Of a stretch of DNA of 64,000 nt, positions 44,557-62,904 are shown piece after piece. Position 1 is the first letter of the stretch; each line of letters starts with the position of its first letter. A model generated the notes under the pieces. It was not told the origin of the DNA and ran no database searches. It was given only the letters and a program-made list of their open reading frames with translations. A program made the position numbers and the translations under genes. This DNA comes from a virus: the IMG/VR virus record IMGVR_UViG_3300045988_180190, one strand, 5' to 3'.

Positions 44557-46989
44557 TTATATCTTATTTGTTGTATTGGTAGATATCCCCGAGGTTTTTT
44601 GGATTAAGTCCAGCGTTAATTCGGATAGCTGTCTAAAGCAAGCCAGCACTGAATTCTCTAACCCTTTGATATCGTCACTTCCATAGTATTTTACGAAGTT
44701 TTGAGGACTTATTATTATTAGGAATAACAGTCTTGCCAACTTATCCATTCCATCTCTAAGAGAAGGAAGGAAATCGTTTATATACATCTGGGCGTCAGAC
44801 ACCTGAGATAATACGCTTACAATACCATGTTCAAATACACTACGCTGTCCACTTCTCTGGGCAAACTCCGCAAGCATATTTGGAGTAGCTGTCTGTAAGA
44901 AGTCGCTTGGGTCTTCTCTTGATACACCTTCGGTATTAGAAGCCGCTTCCATAAGAGTTGGAGTCATCATATCACCGTATCTTGGAGCTGGAGGTGCGTA
45001 GGACGTTTCATCCGTCATCAGTGCCCTTGTTTCTGGTATTTCATATGGTATATTTAAGTCTGAGTCAAAACCCTCAAAGAAATCTGGATCTGGATTTAAA
45101 ATAATTCTATCCGCAAATTTCTTAAATAGGAATTTATAATCCTCACCGCGTTTTTGGCTATCATTTGCATGCTTAATTATATAATCGGCAGTTTCTTCGG
45201 AAATATTTACATTCCCCATAAGCAACGCCATAGCACCCATTACATTTACGTTTGCAAATTTAAATCCTGCTATGTTTAAGTTATAACTGCCATCACCATT
45301 GTAATTGACATATCCATGTCCTACGCTGGAATGCTTGACCAAAGTATTGGCATATAAAGTTGACCAGTTACCGGGAACCCAATCTGCCTGAACTATTCCG
45401 ATATTATAATCACTTTTCTTAAAGGAATACAGATTATTTATATCAAAATGTTTCTTCATATCTCCAGCGAGATCTTTGTATTCAATTGGAAGTTCTATCC
45501 AACGCACACTGGGTAAAAATACCTTTAAATCATAAATCGGATATTGAGCAGACGGATTTACTTGTATAATCTCATCTGTTCCAAACACTTGTGTTCTCCA
45601 AGGCGAGAAATCATCATATCCATATGCTGGATATGCCTTTACGGTATATCCACCTGGTGAGTCTGCGTTATCTTTTACTTCTCCAATATAAAATGCTTCA
45701 TCTGATATATAGCAATATTCCGGATCCCATATGCCATAGATCTTACCTGCTTCTGGCTTGACTTTTAGAACTTTTGATAAGTCTTCCTCCTTTTTATCAT
45801 TATCTTTTTCCTCTATCGCTAAAATATTCCTAAAGTTACCAATAACAGGATCATGAAACCCTGGAGCTTTAACATTTTCATCCTCTTGATTATATAATTC
45901 TTTAGGACTGTTAATATCATGATACTGAATTATTCCTTTACGTTCCGGATCTATCGAAACTAAAAGGGCTGGAGTTTTCCCATAATCTGAGTTTCCCACA
46001 ATAGCAACACACCTAACCGTAGACCCGTCAGTAGTTAAAATATCGTAAACAGACGGAGCGTTGGTAGAAATGCCTGCCCAATTCTGATCTGGATCTGCAT
46101 CATAGATCATATTAAGCTGGTCTTCATCTCGATTATCTTCAAAAGAATATCCCTTCGTAATTTGCTCGGCTGCTGTCTTAACGGCATTCTTATTAAAAAT
46201 ACCTTTATGTAAGACTAATAAATTTTTCGGCTTTGCTGCTTCAGATGCCTTTTTCACTTGGAGAGCCCTTGCTTCTTCAAGCACGTCCATTGGAATATAA
46301 TCAGATTCGTCACAAAGCCCCACTACGTTATTTGCAAATTCTTTATCAGATTTTAAAGCCTCTGCAAGTTTGTTCCATGCGTCTATTCCAGCGGATTTTA
46401 AAAATTTGTGTAATGGGCTATAATCTACATCCTTTGACTCCACAAATGTGTTAAATACAGAATCATACATTGAAGTAAACGAAGAAAAATCGTCTTGATC
46501 CGTATCTGATAGATTTAGTTCTGAAGCAAACTTCTTAAGTGAAGAGGTTTTATAAAGCGGTGTGGCAATACGCATCATTTCAATGTCCTGCTTCCCTTGA
46601 TTTGCTAGAGACATGTCCACAGCAGTACCATCTCCACTTTCTTCATAGAGTCCTATAAAATAATTACACCAATCAGGATTAAGGTACACGAACTTCTTTT
46701 CGTCTACATTATATAAAAATTCTGTTCCCTTTACTTGCCCGTTTACATAGAATACTGGGGCATATAGAATATGTTTATTTACTCTAAATACGTAAATTCC
46801 CACCATCTTTGTGAAAGCGTCATTTGTCTTGACAATCTCAAAACCAAGATAGTAGTCATTTGTAAAAAATGGAGAAGCCTTATCTTCCATTACGGTTGAT
46901 GAAGCTCTATAAAAAGCTATTTCAGCATCTGTTTCTTTAAGAGCAGAAGACGCAGCCTTCTTGAAATCATAGTCTTTTAAGGATATCAT
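44557..46989 (-). CDS. portal protein candidate (by size and position only)
   Basis: 810-aa ORF at the upstream end of the protease/scaffold/MCP block. N-terminus MISLKDYDFKKAASSA weakly resembles the NF-x-KFA tag. Confidence 0.3.
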   Translation of the reverse strand: MISLKDYDFKKAASSALKETDAEIAFYRASSTVMEDKASPFFTNDYYLGFEIVKTNDAFTKMVGIYVFRVNKHILYAPVFYVNGQVKGTEFLYNVDEKKFVYLNPDWCNYFIGLYEESGDGTAVDMSLANQGKQDIEMMRIATPLYKTSSLKKFASELNLSDTDQDDFSSFTSMYDSVFNTFVESKDVDYSPLHKFLKSAGIDAWNKLAEALKSDKEFANNVVGLCDESDYIPMDVLEEARALQVKKASEAAKPKNLLVLHKGIFNKNAVKTAAEQITKGYSFEDNRDEDQLNMIYDADPDQNWAGISTNAPSVYDILTTDGSTVRCVAIVGNSDYGKTPALLVSIDPERKGIIQYHDINSPKELYNQEDENVKAPGFHDPVIGNFRNILAIEEKDNDKKEEDLSKVLKVKPEAGKIYGIWDPEYCYISDEAFYIGEVKDNADSPGGYTVKAYPAYGYDDFSPWRTQVFGTDEIIQVNPSAQYPIYDLKVFLPSVRWIELPIEYKDLAGDMKKHFDINNLYSFKKSDYNIGIVQADWVPGNWSTLYANTLVKHSSVGHGYVNYNGDGSYNLNIAGFKFANVNVMGAMALLMGNVNISEETADYIIKHANDSQKRGEDYKFLFKKFADRIILNPDPDFFEGFDSDLNIPYEIPETRALMTDETSYAPPAPRYGDMMTPTLMEAASNTEGVSREDPSDFLQTATPNMLAEFAQRSGQRSVFEHGIVSVLSQVSDAQMYINDFLPSLRDGMDKLARLLFLIIISPQNFVKYYGSDDIKGLENSVLACFRQLSELTLDLIQKTSGISTNTTNKI

Positions 46990-47058
46990 GTGTGTATTTA
47001 AAATTTAATGTAAAGCAAGTTTACGAGATTTTATAGTAAAAACGCAATCTTAATTTAT

Positions 47059-47463
47059 CTAACTTCTAGCTATATCTTTAGAAAAATCGTCTAGATTAGA
47101 TGTGAAATTAGGATCACCCGATCGCGAAATGGCATTGCGAAGAGCTTTAGCTTTTCCTCCCTGTCCTTGTGATTCAAGAATACTAACTTTCTTTCCCAAA
47201 TCCGCGAGTGCATCACTCTTCTTGCCATAATCGCTTAAAATATTTTTAAATAGATCATTATTATTGTCCAATAAGGTATCGTACTTACCAGACTCTCTGT
47301 CCTCCGAAGTTAAATTTGCCCCATAATTACTAGAGTCAAGAGTAGAATCCTTCTCATCCATATCCCCTCTGTCTGCTTGATTAAGCACAGATTCCGTAAT
47401 CTGATTCTTAATCCAGTCTGGGCTCGCTGCGAATTTTTTAAAATTTAAAATTTTAAATGACAT
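47059..47463 (-). CDS. NF-x-KFA-tagged hypothetical protein
   Basis: 134 aa. N-terminus MSFKILNFKKFAASPDW. Confidence 0.6.
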   Translation of the reverse strand: MSFKILNFKKFAASPDWIKNQITESVLNQADRGDMDEKDSTLDSSNYGANLTSEDRESGKYDTLLDNNNDLFKNILSDYGKKSDALADLGKKVSILESQGQGGKAKALRNAISRSGDPNFTSNLDDFSKDIARS

Positions 47464-47485
47464 AATAATTAGTAATTAATATTTT

Positions 47486-48541
47486 TTAGCCTGCAGCAGT
47501 TGTGCCATTATTGGGGGTTTGCATAGCTACCTGTGGAGCAGTTCCCCATTGCTGAATTCCCTTAGCAACCTCCTCATTAACCGGAGCACCTTGATATGCC
47601 TGATATACCTTATCAACATCCTTGGGAGTAAAGTTAAATGTGGAGGCTAAGGTGCCATAATTATTCAGATTTTTTCCACGTATATTTCTAGCCATCAACT
47701 CATTATATGTTCTATTCATATTATTTTGATTTTGTAGATATGGCATCGCCTCAGCTCTTTGCTTTTGCATAAAATTATTATATGCCCAATTCTTTGGAAT
47801 AATTACTCCCATACCACTCAAGAATTTTTGAATACCTACTTTTATTTGATTCCAGAAATCTAAATTACGGAAATCTTGGTTTGCCTTATTTGTAAGTTGT
47901 TCAGAAGCCATAGCCTGAAAATTTCTAGATTGTGCCAAATTTTTCTGAACAGATTGCTGATAATTATTAGCATTATCTTGTAACGCCTTTGTGTAAGCGT
48001 TTACGTCATTAATATTCTTATTGTTTAATGTACCAGCGGCTAAATTATATCCTACAGACTTATAAGCTTCGTTAGTATCTCCTAATGCGGATCCAGTTCT
48101 GTCAGCCTCATTTACTTGGTTCTGAAAATTACGTGCAGAATTCATAGACCTTCTACCCAATTCCTGCTGTAAAGATTGGCGAGAGTTAGTCTTGCCCCCA
48201 AACAGAGTAGTACCCTTTATGACACGATCAGCACGTGCCTTCCCCATTGAATTTTTAAATCCATTTCCGCTTAACCATCCTATTCCTCCTTTTGCCGCGT
48301 CTACAGCCCAGGTAAGAGGACTATTCCACCCATAGTTTTCATTATAAACCTGGTTCACAGCGTCTCCAATTCCTTGGGTTAAATCCTCTCTAGGGGTTAA
48401 TGGCGCACTATTGTTTGCAAACTTTGCAAAATTAGACATATTCAGTCTGTTACTTATGCGCTGATGAGTTGTGGTAGAAGCAATCTTTAAGTGATCATTG
48501 TAATGCTTCGCAAATTTATTAAAATTTTGTATATTTAACAT
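47486..48541 (-). CDS. NF-x-KFA-tagged hypothetical protein (tag present twice)
   Basis: 351 aa. MLNIQNFNKFAKHY...(residue 35)MSNFAKFANNSAP. Asn/Gln-rich. Confidence 0.6.
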   Translation of the reverse strand: MLNIQNFNKFAKHYNDHLKIASTTTHQRISNRLNMSNFAKFANNSAPLTPREDLTQGIGDAVNQVYNENYGWNSPLTWAVDAAKGGIGWLSGNGFKNSMGKARADRVIKGTTLFGGKTNSRQSLQQELGRRSMNSARNFQNQVNEADRTGSALGDTNEAYKSVGYNLAAGTLNNKNINDVNAYTKALQDNANNYQQSVQKNLAQSRNFQAMASEQLTNKANQDFRNLDFWNQIKVGIQKFLSGMGVIIPKNWAYNNFMQKQRAEAMPYLQNQNNMNRTYNELMARNIRGKNLNNYGTLASTFNFTPKDVDKVYQAYQGAPVNEEVAKGIQQWGTAPQVAMQTPNNGTTAAG

Positions 48542-48543
48542 AA

Positions 48544-50820
48544 CTAAAATCTACCTGTTTTATCTACGTTTTCCGCAAAATCTGGCATAGACATTCTAAC
48601 GAACGGGTCTATATTGTCTTTAATATTTGTCTTATAACCTCTTACCGCAGATTCTACATAATTTTTAGCCTGGTAAGGAGCATTTGCTCTTTCCAAGAAA
48701 TCTGTATTTCCCTTATTGGGAACCTCTCTAAGTCTAACATACACAGGAGAAAAACCTGGTTCATTATCCGAAACATAAAGCTCATCTGTAATACCCGTGC
48801 GCTTAATATGGTCCAGCATCTTATTTGTAAGTTTTGTTCCTATTGTGTAATGTAATACTGGGGCTTGCAAGTATTTGCCTTTTAAATTAACATTTTTATC
48901 ATTGAGCTTTACTTTTTTTGCATCTTTGTCCGGTACATAAGAAGCCTCTAAAGCATTATAAGATACTATATCGCCAGGTAAGTAATCTCCTAATCCATCT
49001 GGATCGGTAATTTCTACCTTATCTACGATACCTCTAGCTAGGACTTCTAAATTTCTTTTATGCGCCGGTGCGTTACTATCGTCCAGTAGCTGTTTTCCCG
49101 TTTCCACGAAAACTCTCCTACCTTCCCCGAGTCCTCTTAGGCGTACAACGTCCTCTAAGTCTACTAAACCATCTGCTAGCTGGTCTCCCTGCTCGACTTC
49201 TTGACCTTCTTTAACTTCTATGTGAGAATCCGGGTCAGCATAATGCTCTATTCCATTAACAACTATATAAGTTCCACCTTGAGGAGCTGGTGTTATTCTT
49301 TCCACTCTCCCATCTGATTCTGCTAGAGGGGCACGAGATTTATAGTGCTCTGGAGATTCAAAAAACTGGTTAATATAATTAAATCCCGAAAAGGTTCTCT
49401 TCTTTCCTTTGAATCCCCCAGCTTCGTGTTTTGAAGAATTATGTGACAAGAGACCATTTTTTAATACGAATAAATGTGTATCTCCACTAATTTCTATGTC
49501 AAAACAATGCTGCAATCCTACATAGCGAATCTGTGTAATCTTCGCAGGGTCACCCCTTACGTCTAAACATAAATTTGAGTCAAATATTTCTTGCACTGGA
49601 AGGTCTTTTAATTCTCCGTATATTTTAAATCTATGTTGTCTAGTACAAACAACAGAATACTCTATATCATCAACAGAAAATATAACCTCATATACATTGC
49701 GAATATTCTGGTCTATAACAGAAATGATTTCCTCAGGAACTAGTGACTTACCATCTTTAGAGATACTTATTACCTTCTCCCCTGGTTTTAAATCCTTAAT
49801 TTTTTTAAACTGCTGTGACCATAGCATAACTTCTGTATCTTGATGCAAGCATAGTCCGCCCTGAATAGCAGGCTCACTAACAGAAGTTGCCGCTGCAATT
49901 CCTGCATGGAACTCTCCAATTCTAGGCAATCTTTTATTGTAATCCAATCCAAAAGCTTCTGCAGAAATACCTTCGGGAGAAACTGTGGCAATTGGAGAAT
50001 GCACTATCACAGTTTTTACACCTTTATTTTTAAGAGAATTTAGTACGTCACGATCAACTATGGTTCCCTCAGCAAATCCTCCCGCCGGACGCGCAAGCAC
50101 TCGTCCGTAAAGTGATGAGTCGTCTATGTCTAAGTCTATACCATTATTGGAAAGATCTTTTTTAGACGTAATCATCATATTTGCCACTGGGCGAAATAAA
50201 CTTTTACCCCAACCTCCAAATTTAGCTGTACTTTTTTTGATAGCGATAGTTGAAGCTCTTGTACCATAAGTGCTAGCTAAATATTCTGGAATGGATAATC
50301 CTTCTCCAAAACTTTTCTTAACAAAGAAAGGAATCGTTCTACCCTTATAATCTGTATAGAGTGCTGGAGTTGTAATTAAAGCTTTTAACTGAAAGGGAGA
50401 ACCTCTTGCTCCAGAGGATACAGAGTTATAAAGATTATTATGCTTTTCTTTAGCAGCATTCAGTGTATCTTTCTCAAGCTTTGTAGCATAACGTTCGTAT
50501 ACCTCCATTATAGCTTTGTTCTTTTTGTTTTCATCTTTTATATTCCTCCTTAAAAACTGCACCTCTTTATGCATTTCTTCCAGTGCAGCTTCCTTATCAA
50601 ATGGAGGTTTAAAATCCGAAAGTTTCAAAGTCTGTCCAGAGTAGTATACTGATTTACGAGCAATATCCATTAATTTATCCATTATATCCCTGTATCTGTC
50701 TGGATATTTTTCAGCAATAAGAGACTGCAACTCGTTTATTGACTTCGTGTCATATGTGCGAGTGTAGTCCCTTATATCCTCGGGTAAAACGGAATTAATT
50801 AAATATTGAATAGCTTTCAC
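48544..50820 (-). CDS. multisubunit RNA polymerase beta-prime subunit, C-terminal fragment, interrupted by a mini-intein
   Basis: 758 aa. SSGARGSPFQLKALIT, bridge-helix-like YLASTYGTRASTIAIKKSTAKFGGWGKSLFRPV, and trigger-loop-like SVSEPAIQGGL[intein]SSKHEAGGF match beta-prime motifs as I recall them (SGARG; GEPGTQLTMRTFH.GG). Confidence 0.8.
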   Translation of the reverse strand: MKAIQYLINSVLPEDIRDYTRTYDTKSINELQSLIAEKYPDRYRDIMDKLMDIARKSVYYSGQTLKLSDFKPPFDKEAALEEMHKEVQFLRRNIKDENKKNKAIMEVYERYATKLEKDTLNAAKEKHNNLYNSVSSGARGSPFQLKALITTPALYTDYKGRTIPFFVKKSFGEGLSIPEYLASTYGTRASTIAIKKSTAKFGGWGKSLFRPVANMMITSKKDLSNNGIDLDIDDSSLYGRVLARPAGGFAEGTIVDRDVLNSLKNKGVKTVIVHSPIATVSPEGISAEAFGLDYNKRLPRIGEFHAGIAAATSVSEPAIQGGLCLHQDTEVMLWSQQFKKIKDLKPGEKVISISKDGKSLVPEEIISVIDQNIRNVYEVIFSVDDIEYSVVCTRQHRFKIYGELKDLPVQEIFDSNLCLDVRGDPAKITQIRYVGLQHCFDIEISGDTHLFVLKNGLLSHNSSKHEAGGFKGKKRTFSGFNYINQFFESPEHYKSRAPLAESDGRVERITPAPQGGTYIVVNGIEHYADPDSHIEVKEGQEVEQGDQLADGLVDLEDVVRLRGLGEGRRVFVETGKQLLDDSNAPAHKRNLEVLARGIVDKVEITDPDGLGDYLPGDIVSYNALEASYVPDKDAKKVKLNDKNVNLKGKYLQAPVLHYTIGTKLTNKMLDHIKRTGITDELYVSDNEPGFSPVYVRLREVPNKGNTDFLERANAPYQAKNYVESAVRGYKTNIKDNIDPFVRMSMPDFAENVDKTGRF
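49438..49851 (-). other. mini-intein (residues 324-461 of the beta-prime fragment)
   Basis: Starts with Cys (CLHQDTEVML). Block B VVCTRQHRF. Blocks F/G CFDIEISGDTHLFVLKNGLLSHN, followed by Ser+1. About 138 aa, with no endonuclease-sized insert. Confidence 0.8.
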
Positions 50821-51556: not shown

Positions 51557-52228
51557 CTATTTAATAAGTTTTGCGTCAAGAATTCTTGCGGTTAAAGCCT
51601 TCTGCAGTGCTTGTATCTGCGTAAGAGCCTTAGCGTTTTTCTCTTGAAGCAATAGCACGCCTTCTATCTTATTGCATATGGACTTAGCGTCACTCGGGTT
51701 TTCCAAAGCTAGCAAGTTACTTGCAAAGAATTTAAATACTTCACCATCTTTCCAATACAAATCCGAAAAAGCTTCTGCAGGTGCTGTTAGGAAATAGGAA
51801 AAATCTTTCATTGCATATGCAATGTTCCCCTGCTGAGATATTTTCAGCTTATTTCCTTCTAGAATCCATCCGCCACTCTTTAAGTTGGCATAGAATGTTG
51901 GGTCTTGTGCGTCTTTTTCCCTAATAAATGTCTCGGGATGCAAGCAGCACAAAGTCCAGTCTGAACCCGTTAGCTTTAAGCCTGCACAATATGTGATGCA
52001 AAACATTTCACGTGAAGCATCATATACTTGTTTCTTTGCTTCATCCGAACTCTTGTAAGATTCCCAAGCAGCTTTTAGGTCGTCACCATTTGATTGGGTA
52101 AACTTAACTGTGTCTTCCCAACTTGTTGAGAATGCCGATTTAAACTCAGCCTTTAGTTCTTCTAATGATTTAGCATTTGCAGCTAAACAAACGAAGCAAG
52201 CGGTAATAGCTATAATAATTTTTTTCAT
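51557..52228 (-). CDS. secreted hypothetical protein
   Basis: 223 aa. Signal peptide MKKIIIAITACFVCLAANA/KS. Confidence 0.6.
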   Translation of the reverse strand: MKKIIIAITACFVCLAANAKSLEELKAEFKSAFSTSWEDTVKFTQSNGDDLKAAWESYKSSDEAKKQVYDASREMFCITYCAGLKLTGSDWTLCCLHPETFIREKDAQDPTFYANLKSGGWILEGNKLKISQQGNIAYAMKDFSYFLTAPAEAFSDLYWKDGEVFKFFASNLLALENPSDAKSICNKIEGVLLLQEKNAKALTQIQALQKALTARILDAKLIK

Positions 52229-52229
52229 G

Positions 52230-52514
52230 TTAGTTCCTATCTGTTATTAATGATTTAATTTCTTCTAAAATATAAATTTTTTTAAAGCCTATAGCTTTAT
52301 CATAATCCTGCCATTTGTACCAGATAAAAGTATTTGGGTACACATCAAATCGCTTCTTCCAAAACTCTAGTGGTAGCGATTGCTCGTACTTAAAAGTGAG
52401 CATATCATCTGCATAATCTATGAGATCGTTTAACTTATAAATATCATAATCAGGCGTTGAACCTAACAAGTATGCAAATGGCATACATAATATGCATAGT
52501 AATTTCTTTATCAT
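52230..52514 (-). CDS. small secreted/membrane hypothetical protein
   Basis: 94 aa. Hydrophobic N-terminus MIKKLLCILCMPFAYLLG. Confidence 0.5.
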   Translation of the reverse strand: MIKKLLCILCMPFAYLLGSTPDYDIYKLNDLIDYADDMLTFKYEQSLPLEFWKKRFDVYPNTFIWYKWQDYDKAIGFKKIYILEEIKSLITDRN

Positions 52515-53197
52515 AATTTAACCTTTGAATCTCCGTAGTATGTTGGAAGTATAGAAATCCATCTCTTTACACCACTCGGTAGTAGCTCAGCTTTAGACAT
52601 ATTTTGTCTCCATACTATTATAGTGTTATTAGGATCTGTAAAGATTTCTCTTATATAATCTCCTCTTTTTAATCTTCTTGTTGTAGAGTAGCGCCCAAAA
52701 CCTGTGTAAACCGGGACATTAACAATGTCGGTAGCATCCACTGAAGGATAAAACCAAACTCCTGTTGCAGTGTTGGAACCTAGAGAAGCTCCAATAGAAC
52801 CGGTTGCGTAATTCGAAAATTGTACCCGTTGCCCAAAACACCTGTTGTAATCCCCGCTACCTGAAGTAGAGAAATAGTATATTGTAGGACTTGAGTCTGT
52901 AATATTGGAGTGTCCATTTATATAGGTAGAGTATTGAAGTGAGAATGTTGCGGAGAAATACAAAGTATTTCTATACTGGTCTATGACTTTAATCTCAAAA
53001 TCCGAACAATATTTAGAGTCCGAATAAGGTGAAGGACTCATATCCACATATATGTAGAAATCCCTATATATTTTATTAACACTTGGTGACTTACCAGTTG
53101 TTGTATCATATACAAAGGGTTTAGTAGCCGAGTGCAGAGCTAGACTACAAAAGGCCATTAAACCTAGAAAATATAATTTTTTAATACTTAAAAACAT
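52511..53197 (-). CDS. secreted hypothetical protein
   Basis: 228 aa. Signal-like MFLSIKKLYFLGLMAFCSLALHSA. Beta-rich, Tyr/Ser/Thr-rich. Confidence 0.55.
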   Translation of the reverse strand: MFLSIKKLYFLGLMAFCSLALHSATKPFVYDTTTGKSPSVNKIYRDFYIYVDMSPSPYSDSKYCSDFEIKVIDQYRNTLYFSATFSLQYSTYINGHSNITDSSPTIYYFSTSGSGDYNRCFGQRVQFSNYATGSIGASLGSNTATGVWFYPSVDATDIVNVPVYTGFGRYSTTRRLKRGDYIREIFTDPNNTIIVWRQNMSKAELLPSGVKRWISILPTYYGDSKVKL

Positions 53198-53220
53198 AAT
53201 AATTCCTATTATCTAAACAT

Positions 53221-53550
53221 TTATTGGGAATTAAGCTCATTCCATTCCTCCTCAGTCAGATAAGATGGGCTAATGCCCCCTTCATCCTGATTAAATACTA
53301 AATATACAAACTTGTCAGGAATCTCCTGATTGCCGTTAAATACTTTCATTTTAATGTAAGACAAAGCTCCTTCCAATGCTATAGCATTAGAAACAATCTT
53401 TATATTTGTTAGTGGAACACCATTAGCGTCTGTATCTATAGACAGTTCACCAGAAGACTCTCCGGACGATTTTATATAACCGGAAGGATAAACAATCCTG
53501 TCATTTTGACAGGACGCTAAAGAAGTGGTATCTGTTCCAGAAGAAGACAT
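53221..53550 (-). CDS. hypothetical protein
   Basis: 109-aa ORF. Confidence 0.5.
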   Translation of the reverse strand: MSSSGTDTTSLASCQNDRIVYPSGYIKSSGESSGELSIDTDANGVPLTNIKIVSNAIALEGALSYIKMKVFNGNQEIPDKFVYLVFNQDEGGISPSYLTEEEWNELNSQ

Positions 53551-53551
53551 A

Positions 53552-54055: not shown

Positions 54056-54099
54056 CTACTTACCTAAATAATAACATAAAAATATTCTAAAAGTCTACA

Positions 54100-54366
54100 T
54101 CAGTTTTTAGATATTTTTACGTTGAACAAAAACTTACGCTTTGGGTTATTCGACCCGGGATTGCAATTTTTATCTATATTGCTTATGGTTTTTTCCACTA
54201 CAGTTAATTCCTGCTCTGCAGAAGGATTAACGAAATTATGAAACATTGTACCAATACCACTCATCTGCATCCACTCAGAAAGTGATGGCCCAAATGCTGA
54301 CATCCCCGCAGGGAGCGTGATACCTTTTGTCTTATATAGCTTATCTTTTTCTTCGTCAGTTAACAT
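54100..54366 (-). CDS. hypothetical protein
   Basis: 88-aa ORF. Confidence 0.45.
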   Translation of the reverse strand: MLTDEEKDKLYKTKGITLPAGMSAFGPSLSEWMQMSGIGTMFHNFVNPSAEQELTVVEKTISNIDKNCNPGSNNPKRKFLFNVKISKN

Positions 54367-54367
54367 A

Positions 54368-54733
54368 TTATTTATTATTTATTATTTCCATTCTGTAGGC
54401 ATCCGCCATATCCATGAAATAACGCATGTACTTTGGGGAAATTTTGTAATTACCGCCTGTGTCACACTTTGTAATGCCGTCATTTTTCTTTAATGGTGGA
54501 ATAATCCTATCCCCATATTTATCAATTAAAGCATTATAAAGATCAACTGTTTTTTTCGTTATTATGAAATATTTTCCATCTTCAATATCAACTAACCCAC
54601 CGGTCTGACCACCATACTCATCGTAGGATATACTGTCGCCATCTATGATGTCAGGAGTTTTATTCGTAGTGGAAAGGCAACCAGAAACACCTATAAGAAG
54701 AAAACTACAAAGAAATATTCTTGCGTATCTCAT
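54368..54733 (-). CDS. lipoprotein
   Basis: 121 aa. Signal plus lipobox MRYARIFLCSFLLIGVSG/C. 29-nt overlap with the upstream small ORF. Confidence 0.6.
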   Translation of the reverse strand: MRYARIFLCSFLLIGVSGCLSTTNKTPDIIDGDSISYDEYGGQTGGLVDIEDGKYFIITKKTVDLYNALIDKYGDRIIPPLKKNDGITKCDTGGNYKISPKYMRYFMDMADAYRMEIINNK

Positions 54734-54911
54734 CTAGAGCCTCCTTATCTCCGTTTAAGGAATCATGAATTAGCTTATTATGCTTGTCGGATTCTTTGTT
54801 TATTTTTTTAGCCATTTCATTGTCTGTTATCGTAGAATCCTTTGACCTGTTGGCAAAAATAGAAGCTATATACTCTATTATTCTTAAAATTGAGGCTATT
54901 ATTACGTGCAT
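54705..54911 (-). CDS. small protein with N-terminal hydrophobic segment and charged helical tail
   Basis: 68 aa. MHVIIASILRIIEYIASIF, then a Lys/Asp/Glu-rich tail. Confidence 0.4.
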   Translation of the reverse strand: MHVIIASILRIIEYIASIFANRSKDSTITDNEMAKKINKESDKHNKLIHDSLNGDKEALDEIRKNISL

Positions 54912-54917
54912 AATATA

Positions 54918-55877
54918 TTAAAAATAAGATTTATCAAATGTCCACATATCCATTACATAATGTGGGTCAGCTAAGAAAGAAGCTGGTAAATATCCGTACC
55001 CAAAATCTCCTGTGGATGTTCCCCAGCTGTTTATAAACTCAAAATATGTCTCACCCTTATGCTGCCTAAACCCTGTTATGCAAATAGCATGTCCGCCAAT
55101 TAATTCGGCAGACTCTATGTCTTCGCAAGGTGTCAAATACCCATAATAGTCAAAATAATCCATTTGCTCTTCGTAAAGATAAATACCCGCTATAATTGGT
55201 AAATGCTCAGATACTAAAACATTTTTGCAAACGGTTATGGGGTCATTCTTAGGATCTATCCTTAAATATTCATGTATCTTAAAGTTTAAATCTGTAGTAA
55301 TGTCTGATGGTGGATTGCTGCTGGGATTAAATTTATAAAACGGCATATAAGACTCTGGTATAACACCGTATTTCTTTAAACCCTGCATCAGGCTGCGCAG
55401 AGTTGCCCCTTGGTCTGGAAGTGGAGAAGTTGTTTTACCATAAAACTGGTCTTTGAACATAAAGTCTATAAATCTGGCATTATAATAGATATATAATGGA
55501 GATAATAGGAATGCTTCATCCCCAGACTTACTATGTTCAGCCATTTTTTTAAGCAAAATAAACACGGAAGCTGCACCTGCAAATCCTGTGCAGGCAGAAG
55601 TGTCCTTTTGATTTTGTACAGGTGGAGCATATTTGCGGAGAGAAAACTCATTTATACCGGAAATAGTGTCATTATATACAGATGCGCATAGCTTAATATG
55701 GTCTCTGCTATCTGGTTTATCCGGTTTGCAACCTAGAAGCCTAGCATTTCTGGAGTTTCTAAATCTAGATTCCATGAGACATTCTAATCTGTCTTTAACT
55801 CCGAGTTGTACTTCGTTATCTTTCTTTTTTAAAAGATGTTTTTTTATCCAATGCGATATGGTTTTAAAAAATGCCAT
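54918..55877 (-). CDS. papain-like (C1 family) cysteine peptidase
   Basis: 319 aa. VQNQKDTSAC with Q-x5-C spacing as in papain, GGHAICITGF, and FINSWG...GYGYL. All four catalytic-site positions (Q, C, H, N) are present. No obvious signal peptide. Confidence 0.75.
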   Translation of the reverse strand: MAFFKTISHWIKKHLLKKKDNEVQLGVKDRLECLMESRFRNSRNARLLGCKPDKPDSRDHIKLCASVYNDTISGINEFSLRKYAPPVQNQKDTSACTGFAGAASVFILLKKMAEHSKSGDEAFLLSPLYIYYNARFIDFMFKDQFYGKTTSPLPDQGATLRSLMQGLKKYGVIPESYMPFYKFNPSSNPPSDITTDLNFKIHEYLRIDPKNDPITVCKNVLVSEHLPIIAGIYLYEEQMDYFDYYGYLTPCEDIESAELIGGHAICITGFRQHKGETYFEFINSWGTSTGDFGYGYLPASFLADPHYVMDMWTFDKSYF

Positions 55878-55879
55878 AA

Positions 55880-56176
55880 TTAATTCCCATCTTTATTTTT
55901 AATTAAATTCCTAGCTTGCTGCACGTAAATTAGGCGATCACTTTCTGGAAAATACTTGAAGTATATAATTCCAAGGTCTACATCTGGTTTTTCCAAAATA
56001 GCGGGGTTTTTTAGAGCATCAAAATACAAAATCTGAACACAATTATTTTTGTAAAGTTCAATTTGCTGCTCCTTTATTGCCTCTATGTCATCCCTCAAAG
56101 AGAATTGCATCCTGCTTGTGCAGGACGCAACAAAAAGAGTTAATACACATAATAGAATTCTTACCATATTACGCAA
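55880..56176 (-). CDS. lipoprotein
   Basis: 98 aa. MRNMVRILLCVLTLFVAS/C lipobox. Confidence 0.6.
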   Translation of the reverse strand: MRNMVRILLCVLTLFVASCTSRMQFSLRDDIEAIKEQQIELYKNNCVQILYFDALKNPAILEKPDVDLGIIYFKYFPESDRLIYVQQARNLIKNKDGN

Positions 56177-56438: not shown

Positions 56439-56696
56439 CTATTTCTTTTGATCTGCTACATATTGCTCTGGGTCCACTACCCTCATATCCTTTAAAAACT
56501 CTACGTTAAAAAATGATTCATATCTACGGGTTGTGTCCGTATCTCTAAAATCAAATAAATCAAGAGTTCCTGTTAGTTTATTCTGTACAAGAACGGACAT
56601 TATTTTTCCTTCTTCGTTGCACAGCTCTACAAATGAGATATCCTTTGGAATATCTATTGTCTGCTTATCAATAGCTGATCTTAAACGAATAAGCAT
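56439..56696 (-). CDS. hypothetical protein
   Basis: 85-aa ORF, abutting the next gene. Confidence 0.45.
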   Translation of the reverse strand: MLIRLRSAIDKQTIDIPKDISFVELCNEEGKIMSVLVQNKLTGTLDLFDFRDTDTTRRYESFFNVEFLKDMRVVDPEQYVADQKK

Positions 56697-56699
56697 TTA

Positions 56700-57752
56700 T
56701 TATAACTTGGGGGCTTCTGGAAGATTGCCACCTTGCATTATACTAATAATAGTAGAATATTGCCCAGCTATCTGTGAATATTTACTTTGTAGATCAGTAA
56801 ATGCATTTCTGAGGTCGGTTATATCTTGACGCAAAGCGGCAATATCTTGCTCCTGCTTTTGCACCGTGGAACCAAATTCCTCAAGCATCGGGATTAGATC
56901 CCCCACTGGGTCTCCTTGTGGCGCTGGTGCTCCGCCAGCCATGGAAGGATCCATTGGGGGCATTCCTCCTGCCATAGCTGGATCCATAGGCGGCATTCCG
57001 CCTGCCATGGACGGGTCCATAGGTGGCATTCCACCTGCCATTGGAGGCATTCCTCCCGCCATAGATGGATCCATTGGCGGCATTCCGCCTTGTTGTGGAG
57101 GCATTCCTGCAGCTCCAGCTTTCTTCTCTGCGGGGACGAAAGCTCGTTTAGCAAATTCTAAGTATTCTTCAACTGTTGTAGGATTAGTTATATCTTTTGA
57201 CATATCTATAAAATTATTTAATTTATTTTTTAATATTAATCGTATACCTAAATTCTTCAAGTATTCATTTCCCTCAGTCAAGGATTTAAATAAAGATTGC
57301 GACTGAATATTATCTTCATGCGCTGTCCATACTGGATTTTTAAGTTTACCATATCCACTGGTTGATTCGTAATTTTTTATAGCCTCCGCTACCATTTTTT
57401 TAGCTATACCTTTACCCCTATATCCTTTAAGTAAAGCAACACTAATATATTCCCCAGGGATTCTCTCATATGAAGATAACTCTGGAACCTCTCTTCTTGG
57501 TGTGATACCAACGAACCCAATCACCTTATTTTTATACACCAAAGCATAGATCCTATCAAATGAGCCATTAAAATTTTCCAATAATAACCCATTCCACCAA
57601 TATTCTGGATGTTCCTTCTCTACGTCGTAAAAAAGCTTTCTTAAATCTAATTCAAGTTCATCCTCAGTTAAACCCACTCGATTCCTAGGTGAAGACGCCC
57701 CAAGGTGAAACCCGTAATTCTCTATATCTAAAGGCACTATTTTATTAATCAT
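56700..57752 (-). CDS. GNAT-family acetyltransferase fused to a Met/Pro-rich repeat and a C-terminal coiled coil
   Basis: 350 aa. GNAT motif A LLKGYRGKGIAKKMVAEAI. Residues ~213-277 are GGMPPMDPSMA-type repeats. C-terminal QDIAALRQDITDLRNAFTDLQSKY. Confidence 0.7.
   Translation of the reverse strand: MINKIVPLDIENYGFHLGASSPRNRVGLTEDELELDLRKLFYDVEKEHPEYWWNGLLLENFNGSFDRIYALVYKNKVIGFVGITPRREVPELSSYERIPGEYISVALLKGYRGKGIAKKMVAEAIKNYESTSGYGKLKNPVWTAHEDNIQSQSLFKSLTEGNEYLKNLGIRLILKNKLNNFIDMSKDITNPTTVEEYLEFAKRAFVPAEKKAGAAGMPPQQGGMPPMDPSMAGGMPPMAGGMPPMDPSMAGGMPPMDPAMAGGMPPMDPSMAGGAPAPQGDPVGDLIPMLEEFGSTVQKQEQDIAALRQDITDLRNAFTDLQSKYSQIAGQYSTIISIMQGGNLPEAPKL
56922..57116 (-). repeat. in-frame tandem repeat encoding (GGMPPM[DPSMA])n
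   Basis: Repeated ggcattcc(g/t/a)cc(t)gcc / atgga(t/c)ccat units are visible on the plus strand. The antisense ORFs in the track are artefacts of this repeat. Confidence 0.8.
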
Positions 57753-57762
57753 AAATCAATTG

Positions 57763-58590
57763 CTATCTCCTAATATTGTTTTTATACATATTCGCCCAAG
57801 GGTTACGTTCTTTAAGTTGACCCTTGTCATTAGGAATAGTTATTGGTGTAAAACCACTATCTGGTGTCACAATAGGATTATTAACATCAAATTCTCTATC
57901 TAGGTTTATTTGTGGTGCAGAAGGAGGTTGTTCTAGTTGTATTAAAGGTTTTCTATTCTGGCTGGTACTGGGAATTGGGGTGTTTGTTGGGGCTGTGCTA
58001 CTTCTAGAATTATTTGATGGTGTAAGCCCAAGATCTCGCTCTAGTGCATTAATTGTTGTAGTCCATCTTAAGGTAGGATTCTTTTTGGTCCTCATCCACT
58101 CCTGCTCTCTTCTCCAAACTGCAGAATCTCTAAGGTTGCGTATAATTCCGGCATAGTCTCCCTTTGCAAGTGACTCTCTAAACTTTGGCCAATTTGCAAG
58201 ATTTGCATTAAACCCTAGTGTTGCAAGTCGGTTTTGTGCACTTATGGGAAGCTTATTAAATCCTTTTAATTTACGTACACTTACATTATTCTTAAAATAC
58301 CAATCTTGTAATTGGCTTGATATATTCCTTGGTATATGTGCACCCACCTTTAGGTCACCAGTATACTTTAGTTTTTTACGTAGATACTCTTGAACCTCTG
58401 GGTATAATTTTACCCCTCCTGGTAAAGTTGGAATATCCTTATCGGCTAAATCTGCTGAGTCCATGTAAATTAAATCATTATTTTTTACCCCCCAGCCTTC
58501 AAACTTACGCAAATCATTTAATGATTGTGCGTAATCATACACTTTTGAAGATGTGGCAGCAAATTTTCTAAAGTTACTTATCTTTATCAT
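57763..58590 (-). CDS. NF-x-KFA-tagged lysozyme-like (GH24/T4-lambda lysozyme-type) protein
   Basis: 275 aa. N-terminus MIKISNFRKFAATS. LRKFEGWG...YMDSAD...PTLPGG fits the E..D..T catalytic pattern. LATLGFNANLANWPKFRESLAKGDYAGIIRNLRDSAVWRRE resembles the T4-lysozyme C-lobe. Confidence 0.5.
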   Translation of the reverse strand: MIKISNFRKFAATSSKVYDYAQSLNDLRKFEGWGVKNNDLIYMDSADLADKDIPTLPGGVKLYPEVQEYLRKKLKYTGDLKVGAHIPRNISSQLQDWYFKNNVSVRKLKGFNKLPISAQNRLATLGFNANLANWPKFRESLAKGDYAGIIRNLRDSAVWRREQEWMRTKKNPTLRWTTTINALERDLGLTPSNNSRSSTAPTNTPIPSTSQNRKPLIQLEQPPSAPQINLDREFDVNNPIVTPDSGFTPITIPNDKGQLKERNPWANMYKNNIRR

Positions 58591-59119: not shown

Positions 59120-59207
59120 GGTGTAAAAGTCTTGCAGATTTTATAAATTAATCAATCCAAATGTTATACTATTTACATATCAACTAAGGTAAATATCCAT
59201 CTTTAAG

Positions 59208-60335
59208 TTAGGAATCTTTACCTGAATTATTATACCAATTTGAAATATTTTTACCAAATGACTTTAAAGGTTTCATCCAATCTGATAAAGTTCGAGAGGC
59301 AGCTTGAATACGCTTCTTAGCCGTATCTACTCCTGTCTCTACTGCTTTTCCGATAGGTTGTACAACTCTATTATCAAATTTCTCTCCTGGAGTTAAAACA
59401 GCAGCAGCGTGGGACCTCGCATCTCTAGGTGCTATGATATTTTTTCCAATTACATTCTTGCTATTTTTGGCATCATTTAGTCTATCCACAAAATTCGCAT
59501 TTGCCTGCATTTGGGAAGCCACGGCTTTACCTATTGTAGAACCCGTCATACCCGCTTTCTCCTTTATCTTATTAATTATTGATGGAGCCTTCCTCTTCAT
59601 CTCCTGCTTATAATTGCTTAAAGCAAGCCTGTACATTGCTGCTTCAGTAGTTAAGTTTTTGCGCTCAGTCGGGGATAAACTTGTGTCTTTCGCTCTACTG
59701 CTTAACTCTTTAATCTTAGCTTGGTAGCCTGCTACTGTGGAATTCCATTTGTCAGACTCAGCTTTCATAAGCTTGTTATATTTATCTTCCGCAGTATCTA
59801 TAGTTTTCTGCATCTCTGGATTAAGCACGGTGGATTTATCCATGCCTAATACTTTTGTAAGCATATTATATCTCTTGTTATAGGCATCATCAGAGGCACC
59901 AGTGAGCGGACTTGACCTATACGTGTTCAACTCCTCTGGAGATAAATTACGCGCTCCTTCTCTAAGAGAAGAAATATAATCAGCAAAATTTATTTTTTCT
60001 CTCTTCCCAGCGTCTATATGGTCTATGGATCTCTGTTCTGAAAGAGACAATGGAACTTGAGTTGTGCCTTTTGCAAGAAAATAAAGTTGGTTTAAAAACC
60101 CGTTACCTTGTAAATTTCCTTGTTTATCATATTTTAGAAGAGACCTCCATAAAGGATCACTCCAAGAATTATAACGATCAAAAATTCCTAAATACCTATC
60201 ACCTTTATTCCTCAAGCTGGGTATATTTTGCTTTGGATACAAAGAGTCGTAATCCTCCGCAAGCTCCGGAAAGTACTTGCGGAGGTAGTTATAATTTAAA
60301 GGTTCAGAATTACCCATATAATTTAGTTTATCCAA
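59208..60335 (-). CDS. hypothetical Lys-rich helical protein
   Basis: 375-aa ORF. 8-nt overlap with the upstream gene. Confidence 0.6.
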   Translation of the reverse strand: MDKLNYMGNSEPLNYNYLRKYFPELAEDYDSLYPKQNIPSLRNKGDRYLGIFDRYNSWSDPLWRSLLKYDKQGNLQGNGFLNQLYFLAKGTTQVPLSLSEQRSIDHIDAGKREKINFADYISSLREGARNLSPEELNTYRSSPLTGASDDAYNKRYNMLTKVLGMDKSTVLNPEMQKTIDTAEDKYNKLMKAESDKWNSTVAGYQAKIKELSSRAKDTSLSPTERKNLTTEAAMYRLALSNYKQEMKRKAPSIINKIKEKAGMTGSTIGKAVASQMQANANFVDRLNDAKNSKNVIGKNIIAPRDARSHAAAVLTPGEKFDNRVVQPIGKAVETGVDTAKKRIQAASRTLSDWMKPLKSFGKNISNWYNNSGKDS

Positions 60336-61279
60336 AATTTATTGGATTATCCTGTAAGTATTTAGCTAAAGCTCCAAGACCCAATCCTCCGATTCCTAAC
60401 CCTAAGGCTCCTTTCCAACCTCCGGCAAGTCCACCTATTCCAGATCCTAGGAGTGCCGGTATGGCATAATAAGATAATTCAGGGTTATCCTTAACAAATT
60501 TTTGAAGGTCTCCAATTGTCGAGCGTACAGTCCAGGGTGAATTTTTATCGGATAAACTACTCCCAGCATATCCCGCTAAACCTCCAGCTCCAAAACCACC
60601 AATGTAGGGCATTGCAGCTCTTACATAAGGATTTTTAACTTTAGATGCCGCACGTCCTATACCTTCAAGAACTTTGTTAGCTTTACCTGAAGATTTCGAT
60701 AATAATCTGCTTAATCTTTCATTTGGTTTACCATAAGCAGCGTAATATCTCTTTTTTAAACGTTCAGGATAATTTTCTGCAGTTTCCAAACGTTTTGCTT
60801 TAGCGTCTAACTCCTTATTTAAGATATTTAATGCTTTCTGACTTTCATCCACATATGCAGCATGTGTGGCTCTTTGGGCATCTAATTCTTTATTTACACG
60901 TCCCAAATTATTTTCTGCAGTTCCTAGGAGTTCGGTTTTAGCACCTAATTCTTTCTTTTAGCCTATTTAATTCTTTATTTGCACGCTCAAAATTATTTTG
61001 AGCAGCAGCCAACTCTTCTCTTGCCTTACGTAAAGCAGGACTTGTTCTCGGCTTAGTCGTAGTTGGCTTTTTAGATCGTAAGGGAGCTTTTTTATTTCTC
61101 ATTCTGTTTAATAATGCTGCGCCACCTATAGCCCCTGACATTCCACCTCCCACAACTAAAGATGTTAAAGGATCTATGGTTTCAGCACCATAATCAAAGG
61201 GATCTCCCTGTATGCCTGGTACTAAATTGGTTTCTGGAAGATTATCCGCAAATTTATTAAAATTAGAAGTGTTCATCAT
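60328..61279 (-). pseudogene. glycine-zipper paralog split by a +1 frame change (ORFs 60938..61279 and 60328..60906)
   Basis: The upstream ORF carries the tag MMNTSNFNKFA and a Gly-rich span. The downstream ORF has no ATG before residue 99 and carries the family C-terminus. Its frame is open from 60957, and the two frames overlap only across 60941-60957. Confidence 0.55.
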
Positions 61280-61339
61280 AATTAACTTATTATATTCAGT
61301 GTGCTAATTAACACAAATTTTTAAAAATCTGTCAATTGT
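61280..61339 (-). promoter_or_regulatory. conserved upstream block, copy 1 (TAATTA-centred imperfect palindrome)
   Basis: tattcagtgtgctaattaacacaaattttt. Palindrome tgtgctaattaacaca at 61300-61315. Confidence 0.45.
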
Positions 61340-62341
61340 TTATCCAAAATTTACTGGATTATCCTGTAAGTATTTAGCTAATGCACCGAGTCCCAATCCT
61401 CCTAATCCTAGTCCTAGTGCACCTTTCCATCCTCCGGCAAGCCCACCTATTCCAGATCCTAGGAGTGCCGGTGCAGCATAATAAGCTAATTCAGGATTTT
61501 CGTTAATAAATTTTTTAAGATTTTCAGCTGTTGTTCCAAGGAAATTTCCTGAGTCTTTAGCACCTAAAGCTTGGCTGCCAGCTGCGCCTAGTCCAAAACC
61601 CCCAATCCATGGCAGCGCTGCTTTCACATAAGGATTTTTAGCTTTAGATGCCGCACGTCCTATACCCTTAAATACTCTACTTGATGCACCGCCTAATCCT
61701 CTTTTAGCAGCAACTTCTTTAATGGTAGATGAAGAACCCGGTATGTTTCTTAATCCATTTATGCTTCTTCCTTGAGTTCTTGTTGAAAGATTTGCAGGTT
61801 CTGGGAGAGCCGTTAGTCTGGAAGAAGCATTTCCTTTACCAGGTCTTAAGCCTTCTTCCACAGGTAGTCCAAGAGCTTCTCTTAGTCTTGCTCTTTCCTT
61901 CGGGGATAGATTGCTAATCTTAGAGTATAAAGCGTTACCCATAAGACCTGCTGGGCTCCTATGGACTCCTTGGGTAGCTCCTGAATTTAATCTATCAAAA
62001 TACTCCTTACTTGATGCGCGGAATCTTTCTATAGCTTCTCGTTTTGCTTTTTCTCTAGCTTTTCTACTACGTATCCTAGCTAGTCTGGCATATGTTAAAC
62101 CTCCTGCGGCTCCCCCTATACCACCAACAACCTTTAGGCTATCACTTAGCGAACCATCCGAATCAGACTCTAAACTAGGGTCGTACGAAACAGCGGTGCC
62201 CTGTGTTGCAGAAGAAGGATCTGAAAAATTTTCTGCTTGCGCGGGATTTGCATTAGCTAAACCTGGAGACATTTTGTTCACAGCCTTTTGTTCTTGAGGA
62301 CCCAATCCTGCAAATTTATTAAAATTAGAAGTATTCATCAT
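61340..62341 (-). CDS. NF-x-KFA-tagged glycine-zipper protein (full-length paralog)
   Basis: 333 aa. MMNTSNFNKFAGLGPQ... C-terminus GSGIGGLAGGWKGALGLGLGGLGLGALAKYLQDNPVNFG. Confidence 0.7.
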   Translation of the reverse strand: MMNTSNFNKFAGLGPQEQKAVNKMSPGLANANPAQAENFSDPSSATQGTAVSYDPSLESDSDGSLSDSLKVVGGIGGAAGGLTYARLARIRSRKAREKAKREAIERFRASSKEYFDRLNSGATQGVHRSPAGLMGNALYSKISNLSPKERARLREALGLPVEEGLRPGKGNASSRLTALPEPANLSTRTQGRSINGLRNIPGSSSTIKEVAAKRGLGGASSRVFKGIGRAASKAKNPYVKAALPWIGGFGLGAAGSQALGAKDSGNFLGTTAENLKKFINENPELAYYAAPALLGSGIGGLAGGWKGALGLGLGGLGLGALAKYLQDNPVNFG

Positions 62342-62400
62342 AATTAAATTATTGTATTCAGTGTGCTAATTAACACAAATTTTTGAAAATATGTAAAGTA
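62342..62400 (-). promoter_or_regulatory. conserved upstream block, copy 2
   Basis: Nearly the same sequence as copy 1 (palindrome at 62362-62377), plus atgtaaagtatttatg, which is shared with copy 3. Confidence 0.45.
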
Positions 62401-62454
62401 TTTATGGAAAATTTAAATAAAAATAGTGCTGTTACATCACCATCGATATATACC

Positions 62455-62904
62455 TTATATCGGATTATCTTTTAAATATCTAGCTAATGCACCTAGGCCC
62501 AATCCTCCTAATCCTAGTCCAAGTGCACCTTTCTTACCCCAAGCATAACCACCTAATAAAGAACCCAAGAGTGTAGGTGCAATGTAGTAGGTTACCTCCG
62601 GGTTAGCATCCATGAATTGTTTAAGCTTTTTAGTCGTTGACTGATATACATTATCTGGAGTTCTTTGTGCATCAATATATTCTCCCAAGCCATAGAGCCC
62701 TATACCCCCTATTAGAGGCACTTGCTGTCTTCTTAAAGCTTTTCCTTTAGATACTGCGGAGGCAAGTAAAGCACCTCCTACTGTTCCACCACCTACAGCC
62801 TTAAGTAGAAGTGGTAAGCTCTCGTCACCTGCTTGCTGCAGCTCAGAACTCCGAGAATCAGGACCCGATCCCGCAAATTTATTAAAATTAGAAGTGTTTA
62901 TCAT
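62455..62904 (-). CDS. NF-x-KFA-tagged glycine-zipper protein (short paralog)
   Basis: 149 aa. MINTSNFNKFAGSGPD... C-terminus GALGLGLGGLGLGALARYLKDNPI. Confidence 0.7.
   Translation of the reverse strand: MINTSNFNKFAGSGPDSRSSELQQAGDESLPLLLKAVGGGTVGGALLASAVSKGKALRRQQVPLIGGIGLYGLGEYIDAQRTPDNVYQSTTKKLKQFMDANPEVTYYIAPTLLGSLLGGYAWGKKGALGLGLGGLGLGALARYLKDNPI

Follow-up and report, generated by a model that had tools for sequence, protein, structure and literature searches.

The 64,000-nucleotide stretch of viral DNA analyzed here (IMG/VR virus record IMGVR_UViG_3300045988_180190; hereafter, the window) encodes a phage head module and several proteins that share a short N-terminal peptide, hereafter the tag, with the consensus M-x-x-x-S-N-F-x-K-F-A (Table 1). 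All genes in the window except one are on the minus strand, and the layout consists of tail-like genes at 1-34 kilobases (kb), an inserted IS200/IS605 element, the head module at 34.8-47 kb, and a variable region at 47-63 kb. The window also encodes a fragment of the beta' subunit of a multisubunit RNA polymerase that carries an intein (Hint domain; 48544-50820). Neither megablast of 24 kb nor tblastn of the 810-amino-acid (aa) and 684-aa head-module proteins produced a match among GenBank phages; those that were found, only via the RNA polymerase beta' fragment, are distant (25-29% identity). The relatives of this phage are metagenomic contigs only, about 110-220 kb long, and for comparison we used the head-module loci of nine of these (L010-L018), in which the 810-aa protein or the predicted protease is 26-60% identical and the guanine-cytosine (GC) content ranges from 0.30 to 0.63.

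Table 1. Tagged genes and head-module features in the window. A slash marks the putative cleavage position; K.A[SAG] counts are given as observed versus expected.
Feature	Sequence	Feature coordinates	Strand	Gene and remarks
Gene A tag	MINTSNFNKFAG; MINTSNFNKFA/G	62872..62904	minus	ORF start 62904; gene 62455-62904, 149 aa, glycine-zipper C-terminal domain
Gene B tag	MMNTSNFNKFAG; MMNTSNFNKFA/G	62309..62341	minus	ORF start 62341; gene 61340-62341, 333 aa, paralog of A
Gene C tag	MMNTSNFNKFAD; MMNTSNFNKFA/D	61247..61279	minus	ORF start 61279; gene 60938-61279, 113 aa
Gene D tag	MIKISNFRKFAA; MIKISNFRKFA/A	58558..58590	minus	ORF start 58590; gene 57763-58590, 275 aa, no assigned function
Gene E, N-terminal 42 residues with three candidate sites	MLNIQNFNKFAK; internal MSNFAKFAN at residues 35-43	48416..48541	minus	ORF start 48541; gene 47486-48541, 351 aa
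Gene F tag	MSFKILNFKKFAA; MSFKILNFKKFA/A	47428..47463	minus	ORF start 47463; gene 47059-47463, 134 aa
Gene G N-terminus (weak form of the tag)	MISLKDYDFKKAAS; MISLKDYDFKKAA/S	46951..46989	minus	ORF start 46989; gene 44557-46989, 810 aa, conserved head-module protein; K.A[SAG] 6 vs 0.9
684-aa head-core protein		41418..43472	minus	K.A[SAG] 7 vs 0.6
Predicted prohead protease, 546 aa	K35-x-A37-S; K239-x-A241	39042..40682	minus	AF2 model and Foldseek match to T4 gp21; K.A[SAG] 8 vs 0.7
506-aa scaffold-like protein		37314-38834	minus	K.A[SAG] 8 vs 1.2
172-aa scaffold-like protein		36707-37225	minus	K.A[SAG] 3 vs 0.4
Major capsid protein, single site	K36-M-A38/S	35774..35782	minus	gene 34856-35887, PHROG major head protein

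A six-frame scan of the whole window with the pattern [ND]F.K[FA]A yields eight occurrences, each within an open reading frame (ORF) on the minus strand and in the same frame. Seven of these lie within the first 15 residues of an ORF, and the eighth corresponds to residues 37-42 of the gene E product. Each of the tagged ORFs begins at the first ATG downstream of a stop codon and, therefore, cannot extend further in the 5' direction. The motif is found in the first 20 residues of 7 of the 64 genes, compared to 0.067 expected from the internal rate (Poisson P ~1e-12) and 0.004 expected from shuffled proteins, with the caveat that these P values are optimistic because the pattern was set after the data were seen. 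The shared N-terminal motif pointed out in an earlier reading of this DNA from its letters alone (hereafter, the sequence-only reading) is thus real, and glycine-zipper proteins are, as claimed there, among its carriers. However, the 'six or seven otherwise unrelated proteins' of that reading are an overcount: genes A, B, and C are paralogs that have in common a glycine-zipper domain at the C-terminus and about 70 nucleotides (nt) of DNA upstream, which leaves about five independent tag occurrences, not seven. The conserved upstream element (ATAAATACTTTACATA...CAAAAATNTGNGTTAATTA...AATAATTTAANT; 62905-62975, 62342-62412, and 61280-61350) may serve as a promoter recognized by the phage RNA polymerase. 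In genes A to F, the residue following the tag alanine is, in that order, G, G, D, A, K, and A.

Within this genome, the tag codons are nearly uniform, mostly, AAT TTT AAT AAA TTT GCN. This near-identity, along with the duplication of three carriers including the promoter region, would be expected if there were no peptide signal at all, that is, if the motif reflected a feature of the nucleotide sequence or of translation initiation at the AT-rich 5' ends of coding regions, or simply the shared ancestry of duplicated 5' ends. The sequence-only reading had argued from synonymous variation that selection acts on the peptide; the variation within the genome is slight and alone proves nothing of the kind, but the conclusion itself stands, the real evidence being that relatives with 30-63% GC keep the peptide motif with other codons. 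Furthermore, of the 28 loci that a scan of IMG/VR found to encode SNFNKFA, only those that belong to this phage group have the peptide at the start of a gene; in the one further candidate, L041, it is read in a different frame within a larger ORF. The motif is also found internally and at residues 27-36 of the major capsid protein (MCP), and the order-specific K.A enrichment in the head proteins described below is a protein-level property. We find an origin at the nucleotide level hardly credible.

The last part of the tag, K-x-A, recurs throughout the head module. The proteins encoded at 34856-46989 contain 34 matches to K.A[SAG] against 5.3 expected (6-fold, z=12), whereas elsewhere the motif is at expectation (8 vs 9.7 in the tail genes and 7 vs 6.8 in the region upstream of 47059). 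The enrichment persists under shuffling in 20-aa windows (z=11.6) and, therefore, is not compositional; none of the related patterns A.K, KA, AK, K..A, R.A, K.S, and E.A is enriched in the head-core proteins (absolute z below 1.2), and K...A is at expectation as well. The residue that follows the 34 internal K.A sites is serine in 23 cases and alanine in 10, and there is little preference upstream of the lysine. The N-terminal tags carry additional features that are not seen at the internal sites, namely, [N/D] at P6, an aromatic or hydrophobic residue (F/W) at P5, and, usually, F at P2.

The MCP contains a single K-x-A, which lies just ahead of the conserved N-arm; the preceding 35 residues are poorly conserved. 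This K-x-A is invariant in seven aligned orthologs down to 28% identity; in three orthologs at a greater distance, the site reads K-N-A-S or K-E-A-S. Among the seven relatives with a complete MCP, six have one K.A[SAG], at residues 27-36, and L014 has K-R-A-L there (in L016-L018, the capsid gene was identified by synteny, size, and N-terminal sequence). In the 810-aa protein, the six K.A[SAG] sites are all within the first 271 residues; beyond the N-terminus, K-x-A is found at residues 153, 198, 246, 271, and 624, the last one as an additional KFAD. In the AF2 model of this protein (pLDDT 69), sites 153 and 624 are in or adjoin low-confidence, probably disordered segments. Homologs of the 810-aa protein with identity as low as 23-27% retain [DN]-[FWY]-x-K-x-A-[SA] at residues ~6-15, for example, YDFKKAAS, FNWKKIAS, YDWKKAAA, PDWRKLAA, and YNWKQAAS. 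The sequence-only reading called this protein portal-sized; a search against PDB profiles gave nothing meaningful, no portal was recognized by sequence profile, and Foldseek against PDB returned nothing above a probability of 0.51 and no portal, so that we dropped this label. The presence of K-x-A-[S/A/G] throughout the scaffold-like proteins, the predicted protease, and the 810-aa protein, and once in the MCP, makes a protease site the primary reading of the motif and a targeting signal the secondary one.

The candidate enzyme is the 546-aa protein. Sequence-profile searches with this family, including a search against PDB, gave no meaningful match. In the AF2 model (pLDDT 85.7), a beta-rich N-terminal domain is connected by a disordered linker (residues 225-245) to a C-terminal domain that is all-helical. 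The N-terminal domain models as the T4 gp21/herpesvirus assemblin fold, that is, as a prohead protease. The top Foldseek match in PDB is T4 gp21 (5jbl_B; probability 1.00, E 1e-2, target-normalized TM 0.51), with the next match at a probability of 0.06, and dozens of matches in BFVD are named prohead (serine) protease or head maturation protease. We identified 167 homologs, many interrupted by inteins and none annotated; LAGLIDADG/Hint inteins are present in the protease of about one quarter of the homologs, apparently at a recurrent site. In an alignment of 65 sequences (~30-80% identity), K35 and A37 of the K35-x-A37-S motif (nt 40572-40580) are invariant, on par with the candidate catalytic residues; also conserved are H56, H60, H101, S150, S152, and D160. 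A second motif, K239 and A241, is 97% conserved and is located in the disordered linker.

The window encodes another peptidase, of the papain family (C1; 54918-55877), and it could be proposed that this enzyme, not the gp21-like protein, processes the tagged proteins. The C1 domain is present among the tagged genes and is conserved, in the same neighborhood, in the 43% identical relative L012. However, no such peptidase was seen in the loci (~20 kb each) of more distant relatives that display the full K-x-A pattern, the enzyme being seen only in the AT-rich lineage, whereas the gp21-like protein occurs throughout the clade, is encoded in the head module, and itself carries the invariant motif. 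Assignment of the processing activity to the C1 peptidase is, accordingly, quite improbable.

The K-x-A pattern extends across the clade. In the nine relatives, K.A[SAG] is significantly enriched in the orthologs of the 810-aa protein and of the predicted protease in nearly all cases, and in the 172-aa, 506-aa, and 684-aa orthologs in most. The N-terminal versions vary: YINKFA, found twice, and YIQKFA in L012; FA[QT]LEK[AQS]A on three consecutive proteins in L013; MLKLAA, HNFVKFAN, and MLYINKIAS in L015; MDKIAS in L017; and MTKKYA[DE]W on four glycine-zipper paralogs in another lineage. The clade-wide invariant core is Lys-x-Ala, and most N-terminal versions have a hydrophobic or aromatic residue at position -2 relative to the lysine. 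The set of tagged genes differs even between close relatives, which carry further tagged genes just outside the limits of the window.

The tag also resembles a peptide that is cut by another type of enzyme. The Prp cysteine protease recognizes the motif MLxx(D/N)LQ(F/L)F'A(S/H)KK (PMC9405229), and the capsid and scaffold propeptides of staphylococcal phage 80alpha, which are processed by the host Prp, are likewise short N-terminal peptides common to different head proteins, with (D/N)-L-Q-(F/L)-F-A where the proteins discussed here have (N/D)-F-N-K-F-A. Given the similarity of the published motif to M-x-x-x-S-N-F-N-K-F-A in length, the D/N, the hydrophobic residue, and F-A, the tag might mimic the propeptide of host ribosomal protein L27 and be cut between F and A by a host or phage Prp. 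The conservation, however, is the inverse of that in the L27 motif: across the clade, the residue before the alanine is unconstrained (F, A, H, L, T, I, Q, S, E, M, or K), and the lysine at -2 is invariant. Moreover, unlike in 80alpha, the motif also occurs internally, in many copies, and the phage has a predicted gp21-type protease of its own, with no Prp (C108) domain among the 63 window proteins. Shine-Dalgarno motifs are not enriched upstream of the window genes, which argues against a Firmicute-type host, and the relatives with 30-63% GC that keep the motif probably infect very different hosts. We rejected Prp/L27 mimicry on the strength of the inverse conservation and the lack of a Prp domain in the window, and consider it very improbable.

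The tagged proteins themselves are diverse. Of the six tagged accessory proteins, A, B, D, and F each contain exactly one K.A[SAG], at residue 9-10 (residue 9 in A), whereas in proteins C and E, the K-F-A of the tag is followed by D and K, respectively, instead of S/A/G. The sequence-only reading had tied its proposal to conservation of the tag in related phages; the tag is indeed kept in homologs of the 810-aa protein, in those of protein D, and in the orthologs of genes E and F. In protein D, all 15 homologs (51-96% identity, 14 of them at 51-63%) retain MI[RQK][IL][NS]NF[RK]KFA, and the next six residues vary. The N-terminal region of protein E contains three candidate sites, NFNKFA (residues 6-11), LKIA/S (residues 18-22), and NFAKFA (residues 37-42), and the ortholog in L002 has three tags in tandem. 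Gene F orthologs carry VSFNLHNFVKFAN in L015 and ...NISNFKKFAAS in L002. Among the glycine-zipper paralogs, the gene B homolog P0191 retains MNTSNFNKFAG, and the 274-aa gene C homolog P0194 begins with MNTKSFIKFAD. Gene C is broken in the window, into the 113-aa ORF at 60938-61279 and a 192-aa ORF at 60328-60906 that starts with TTG and encodes the C-terminal half, whereas in relatives with 95-99% identity (L029, 10238-11125; L009, 7292-8263) and in P0194 it is a single gene encoding 274-323 aa; the split might be due to a mutation (nonsense or frameshift), to an error in the assembly, or to recoding.

Protein D had been described as lysozyme-like. We detected no lysozyme similarity with PHROGs, Pfam, phmmer against PDB, which returned nothing, or hhalign, which gave a probability of 0.1 against an approximate sequence of T4 lysozyme.

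In another lineage, the proteins P0195-P0204 combine a glycine-zipper C-terminal domain (...LGLGLGGLLGGWKG...GLGALAKYL...) with many different N-terminal and middle regions, and four of nine begin with MTKKYA[DE]W; this looks like a cassette-like, fast-diversifying family. In close relatives, just past the position of the 3' end of the window, an ORF of 158 aa located upstream of the one for the RNA polymerase fragment (L009, 3648-4124; L029, 7188-7664) begins with MKPSEYNSLIKQAGLG, which is tag-like (hydrophobic-x-K-x-A-G), so that the tagged set probably reaches past coordinate 64000.

We propose, with a probability of about 0.6, that the tags are short propeptides that end in a prohead-protease site and mark proteins located inside the capsid. 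Under this proposal, the 546-aa protease would recognize K(P3)-x(P2)-A(P1) and, judging from the statistics and the conservation, most likely cut after the alanine and before Ser, Ala, or Gly. The scaffold-like core proteins would be cut up together with the protease and the first third of the 810-aa protein, emptying the prohead; the MCP would lose ~38 N-terminal residues at its single site; and the accessory proteins A-F would lose ~11 residues and remain inside the capsid in mature form, as cargo that may later be ejected. The tags would then be propeptides of 11-13 residues, in which the additional [ND]-aromatic residues may, by analogy with known systems, dock the protein to the scaffold and protease core before cleavage. 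A gp21-fold protease with an invariant motif of its own, a motif-rich scaffold, and an MCP with one site together form the signature of prohead proteolysis, as in T4 and in phiKZ and SPN3US. The sequence-only reading had suggested a propeptide or a tag resembling the T4 capsid-targeting sequence (CTS); this idea, which agrees with all the computed results, gains indirectly from the enrichment of the K-x-A end of the tag in the head-core proteins, its conservation in the clade, and the predicted gp21-fold protease. That reading missed that the motif is not limited to N-termini.

The same pattern could, in principle, be produced by docking without cleavage, with the tag binding the inner shell, the scaffold, or the portal and never being removed, in the manner of encapsulin cargo-loading peptides, and the K-x-A repeats serving as multivalent binding motifs. 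The conserved [ND]-aromatic residues of the tags beyond K-x-A fit such a role, and the enrichment statistics do not separate binding from cutting. However, the protease itself has invariant K-x-A motifs at the N-terminus and in the disordered linker, which is typical of autoprocessing; the single MCP site is located exactly where HK97-fold capsid proteins are usually trimmed; and the combination of many sites in the scaffold with one in the retained proteins is the classical pattern of T4 and phiKZ proteolysis. Docking alone, therefore, appears unlikely.

Among the known systems, T4 offers the closest parallels to the proposed propeptides. The T4 CTS consists of ~10 residues, with targeting dependent on residues 4 and 7 and processing on residues 8 and 10, and the gp21 protease has its own N-terminal site (PMC9026906). 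As with the CTS of the gp21-processed proteins IPI, IPII, IPIII, Alt, and related internal proteins, the tag is an N-terminal peptide of ~10 residues on otherwise dissimilar proteins; it ends in what would be the P3-x-P1 motif of a gp21-fold protease, a motif that is found many times in the scaffold and core and once in the MCP; the protease has its own N-terminal site; and close relatives differ in which genes are tagged. Given the tag-specific residues and the separable positions of the T4 CTS, targeting of the tag to the prohead core is a reasonable, although analogical, suggestion. In T4, placing an Asp at the processing position reportedly prevented cleavage and left targeting intact. The sequences themselves differ, T4 having MKTYQEFIAE with L/I-x-E and the window phage M-x-x-x-S-N-F-x-K-F-A with K-x-A, so that the two peptides do not qualify as homologous: P1 is Ala instead of Glu, and P3 is the basic Lys instead of an aliphatic residue. 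Unlike T4, the window phage has an intein-split multisubunit RNA polymerase and head genes without detectable similarity to those of T4. By analogy, the clade tag would be a functional counterpart of the T4 CTS with a different sequence, that is, a known kind of system and not a new one.

Phages of the phiKZ group (phiKZ, SPN3US, and 201phi2-1, with the gp175/gp245 protease) are, similarly, large phages with their own multisubunit RNA polymerase and with N-terminal propeptides on many head proteins. In SPN3US, AXE sites, propeptides of 20-24 residues, and multiply cut propeptides have been described, and the protease cleaves itself (PMC10052503). The phage analyzed here differs from this group in that P1 is Ala instead of Glu, the genomes are ~165-220 kb, inner-body and ejection proteins have no detectable homologs, and the propeptides are only ~11 residues long and have a common consensus. 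The specificity of these proteases resides in P3 and P1, with L/I-x-E in T4 (PMC9026906) and A/S/G-x-E in phiKZ and SPN3US (PMC10052503). By analogy with T4 and SPN3US, we read K-x-A as P3-x-P1 with the cut after the alanine, a reading that also fits the herpesvirus sites. The assemblin of herpesviruses, a protease of the same fold class, cleaves at V/L-x-A/S and so has Ala at P1, Ser at P1', and a specificity residue at P3 in common with the proposed sites, which differ in having Lys instead of Val or Leu at P3 and in belonging to a bacteriophage. We know of no N-terminal decapeptide tags on accessory proteins of herpesviruses.

Several observations weigh against propeptide cleavage and capsid targeting as proposed here. 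The position of the scissile bond after the alanine was chosen by analogy, and the assignment of the protease is purely structural (a predicted model with a Foldseek E value of 1e-2) because there is no sequence-profile match. Some of the K-x-A columns of the protease, such as K197-W-A199, are within the folded core, so that not every K-x-A can be a site. The residues that follow the alanine in the tags of the window are less Ser-rich than those at the internal sites, and three of the tags are trivially accounted for by gene duplication. To call the tagged proteins 'cargo' is a guess because they have no recognizable function, none of them producing a match in PHROGs or Pfam. Finally, no cultured or GenBank relative was found, and we infer cleavage, location in the virion, and targeting.

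In a stronger form of the proposal, the tag would be a self-sufficient, portable capsid-targeting sequence, independent of that of T4 and coupled to a Lys-P3/Ala-P1 protease of unprecedented specificity, that shuffles a fast-evolving set of ejected effectors, including the glycine-zipper membrane proteins, in a deep, uncultured clade of phages with ~165-220-kb genomes and multisubunit RNA polymerases. Any protein fused to such a tag would be loaded into these capsids. We regard this version as tentative and, as it stands, doubtful.

Several other genes in and around the window deserve mention. Among the tagged genes, there is one for a GNAT acetyltransferase (56700-57752) that is conserved in L012 and forms a fusion with a coiled coil and a repeat rich in Pro, Met, and Gly (MPPMDPSMAGG...); that the acetyltransferase might acetylate new N-termini or the motif lysine is pure speculation. 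At 51557-56167, within the structural region, there is a series of small ORFs with lipoprotein-type signal peptides (lipoboxes ITAC, VSGC, and VASC). The IS200/IS605-type element between the head and tail modules consists of a TnpA Y1 transposase (31745-32197, minus strand) and a TnpB/Cas12f-like gene (32233-33291), the only gene of the window on the plus strand. The best GTDB matches of this TnpB, at most 55% identical, are mostly from methanogenic archaea and give no clue to the host; a TnpB gene is also present within the head module of the relative L018 (7383-8561). Inteins are common in the clade, with further examples in L014 (3442-6498 and 16691-19297).

If the tags are propeptides cleaved by the prohead protease, K-x-A/S would be the rule by which the head protease of an entire uncultured clade cuts, the substrates of which would be known as well, and the boundaries of mature proteins, as well as candidates for capsid-internal and ejected proteins, would become predictable from sequence alone. 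The tag would also be a candidate packaging tag for the engineering of such phages once a member of the clade is in culture. The T4-style short N-terminal peptide that combines targeting with processing on exchangeable cargo would have a sequence-unrelated counterpart in a very different lineage, which would suggest a general design principle for proteases of the gp21/assemblin type. The specificity of the protease, with a basic P3 and Ala at P1, would lie between the phage Glu-P1 and the herpesvirus Ala-P1 types.

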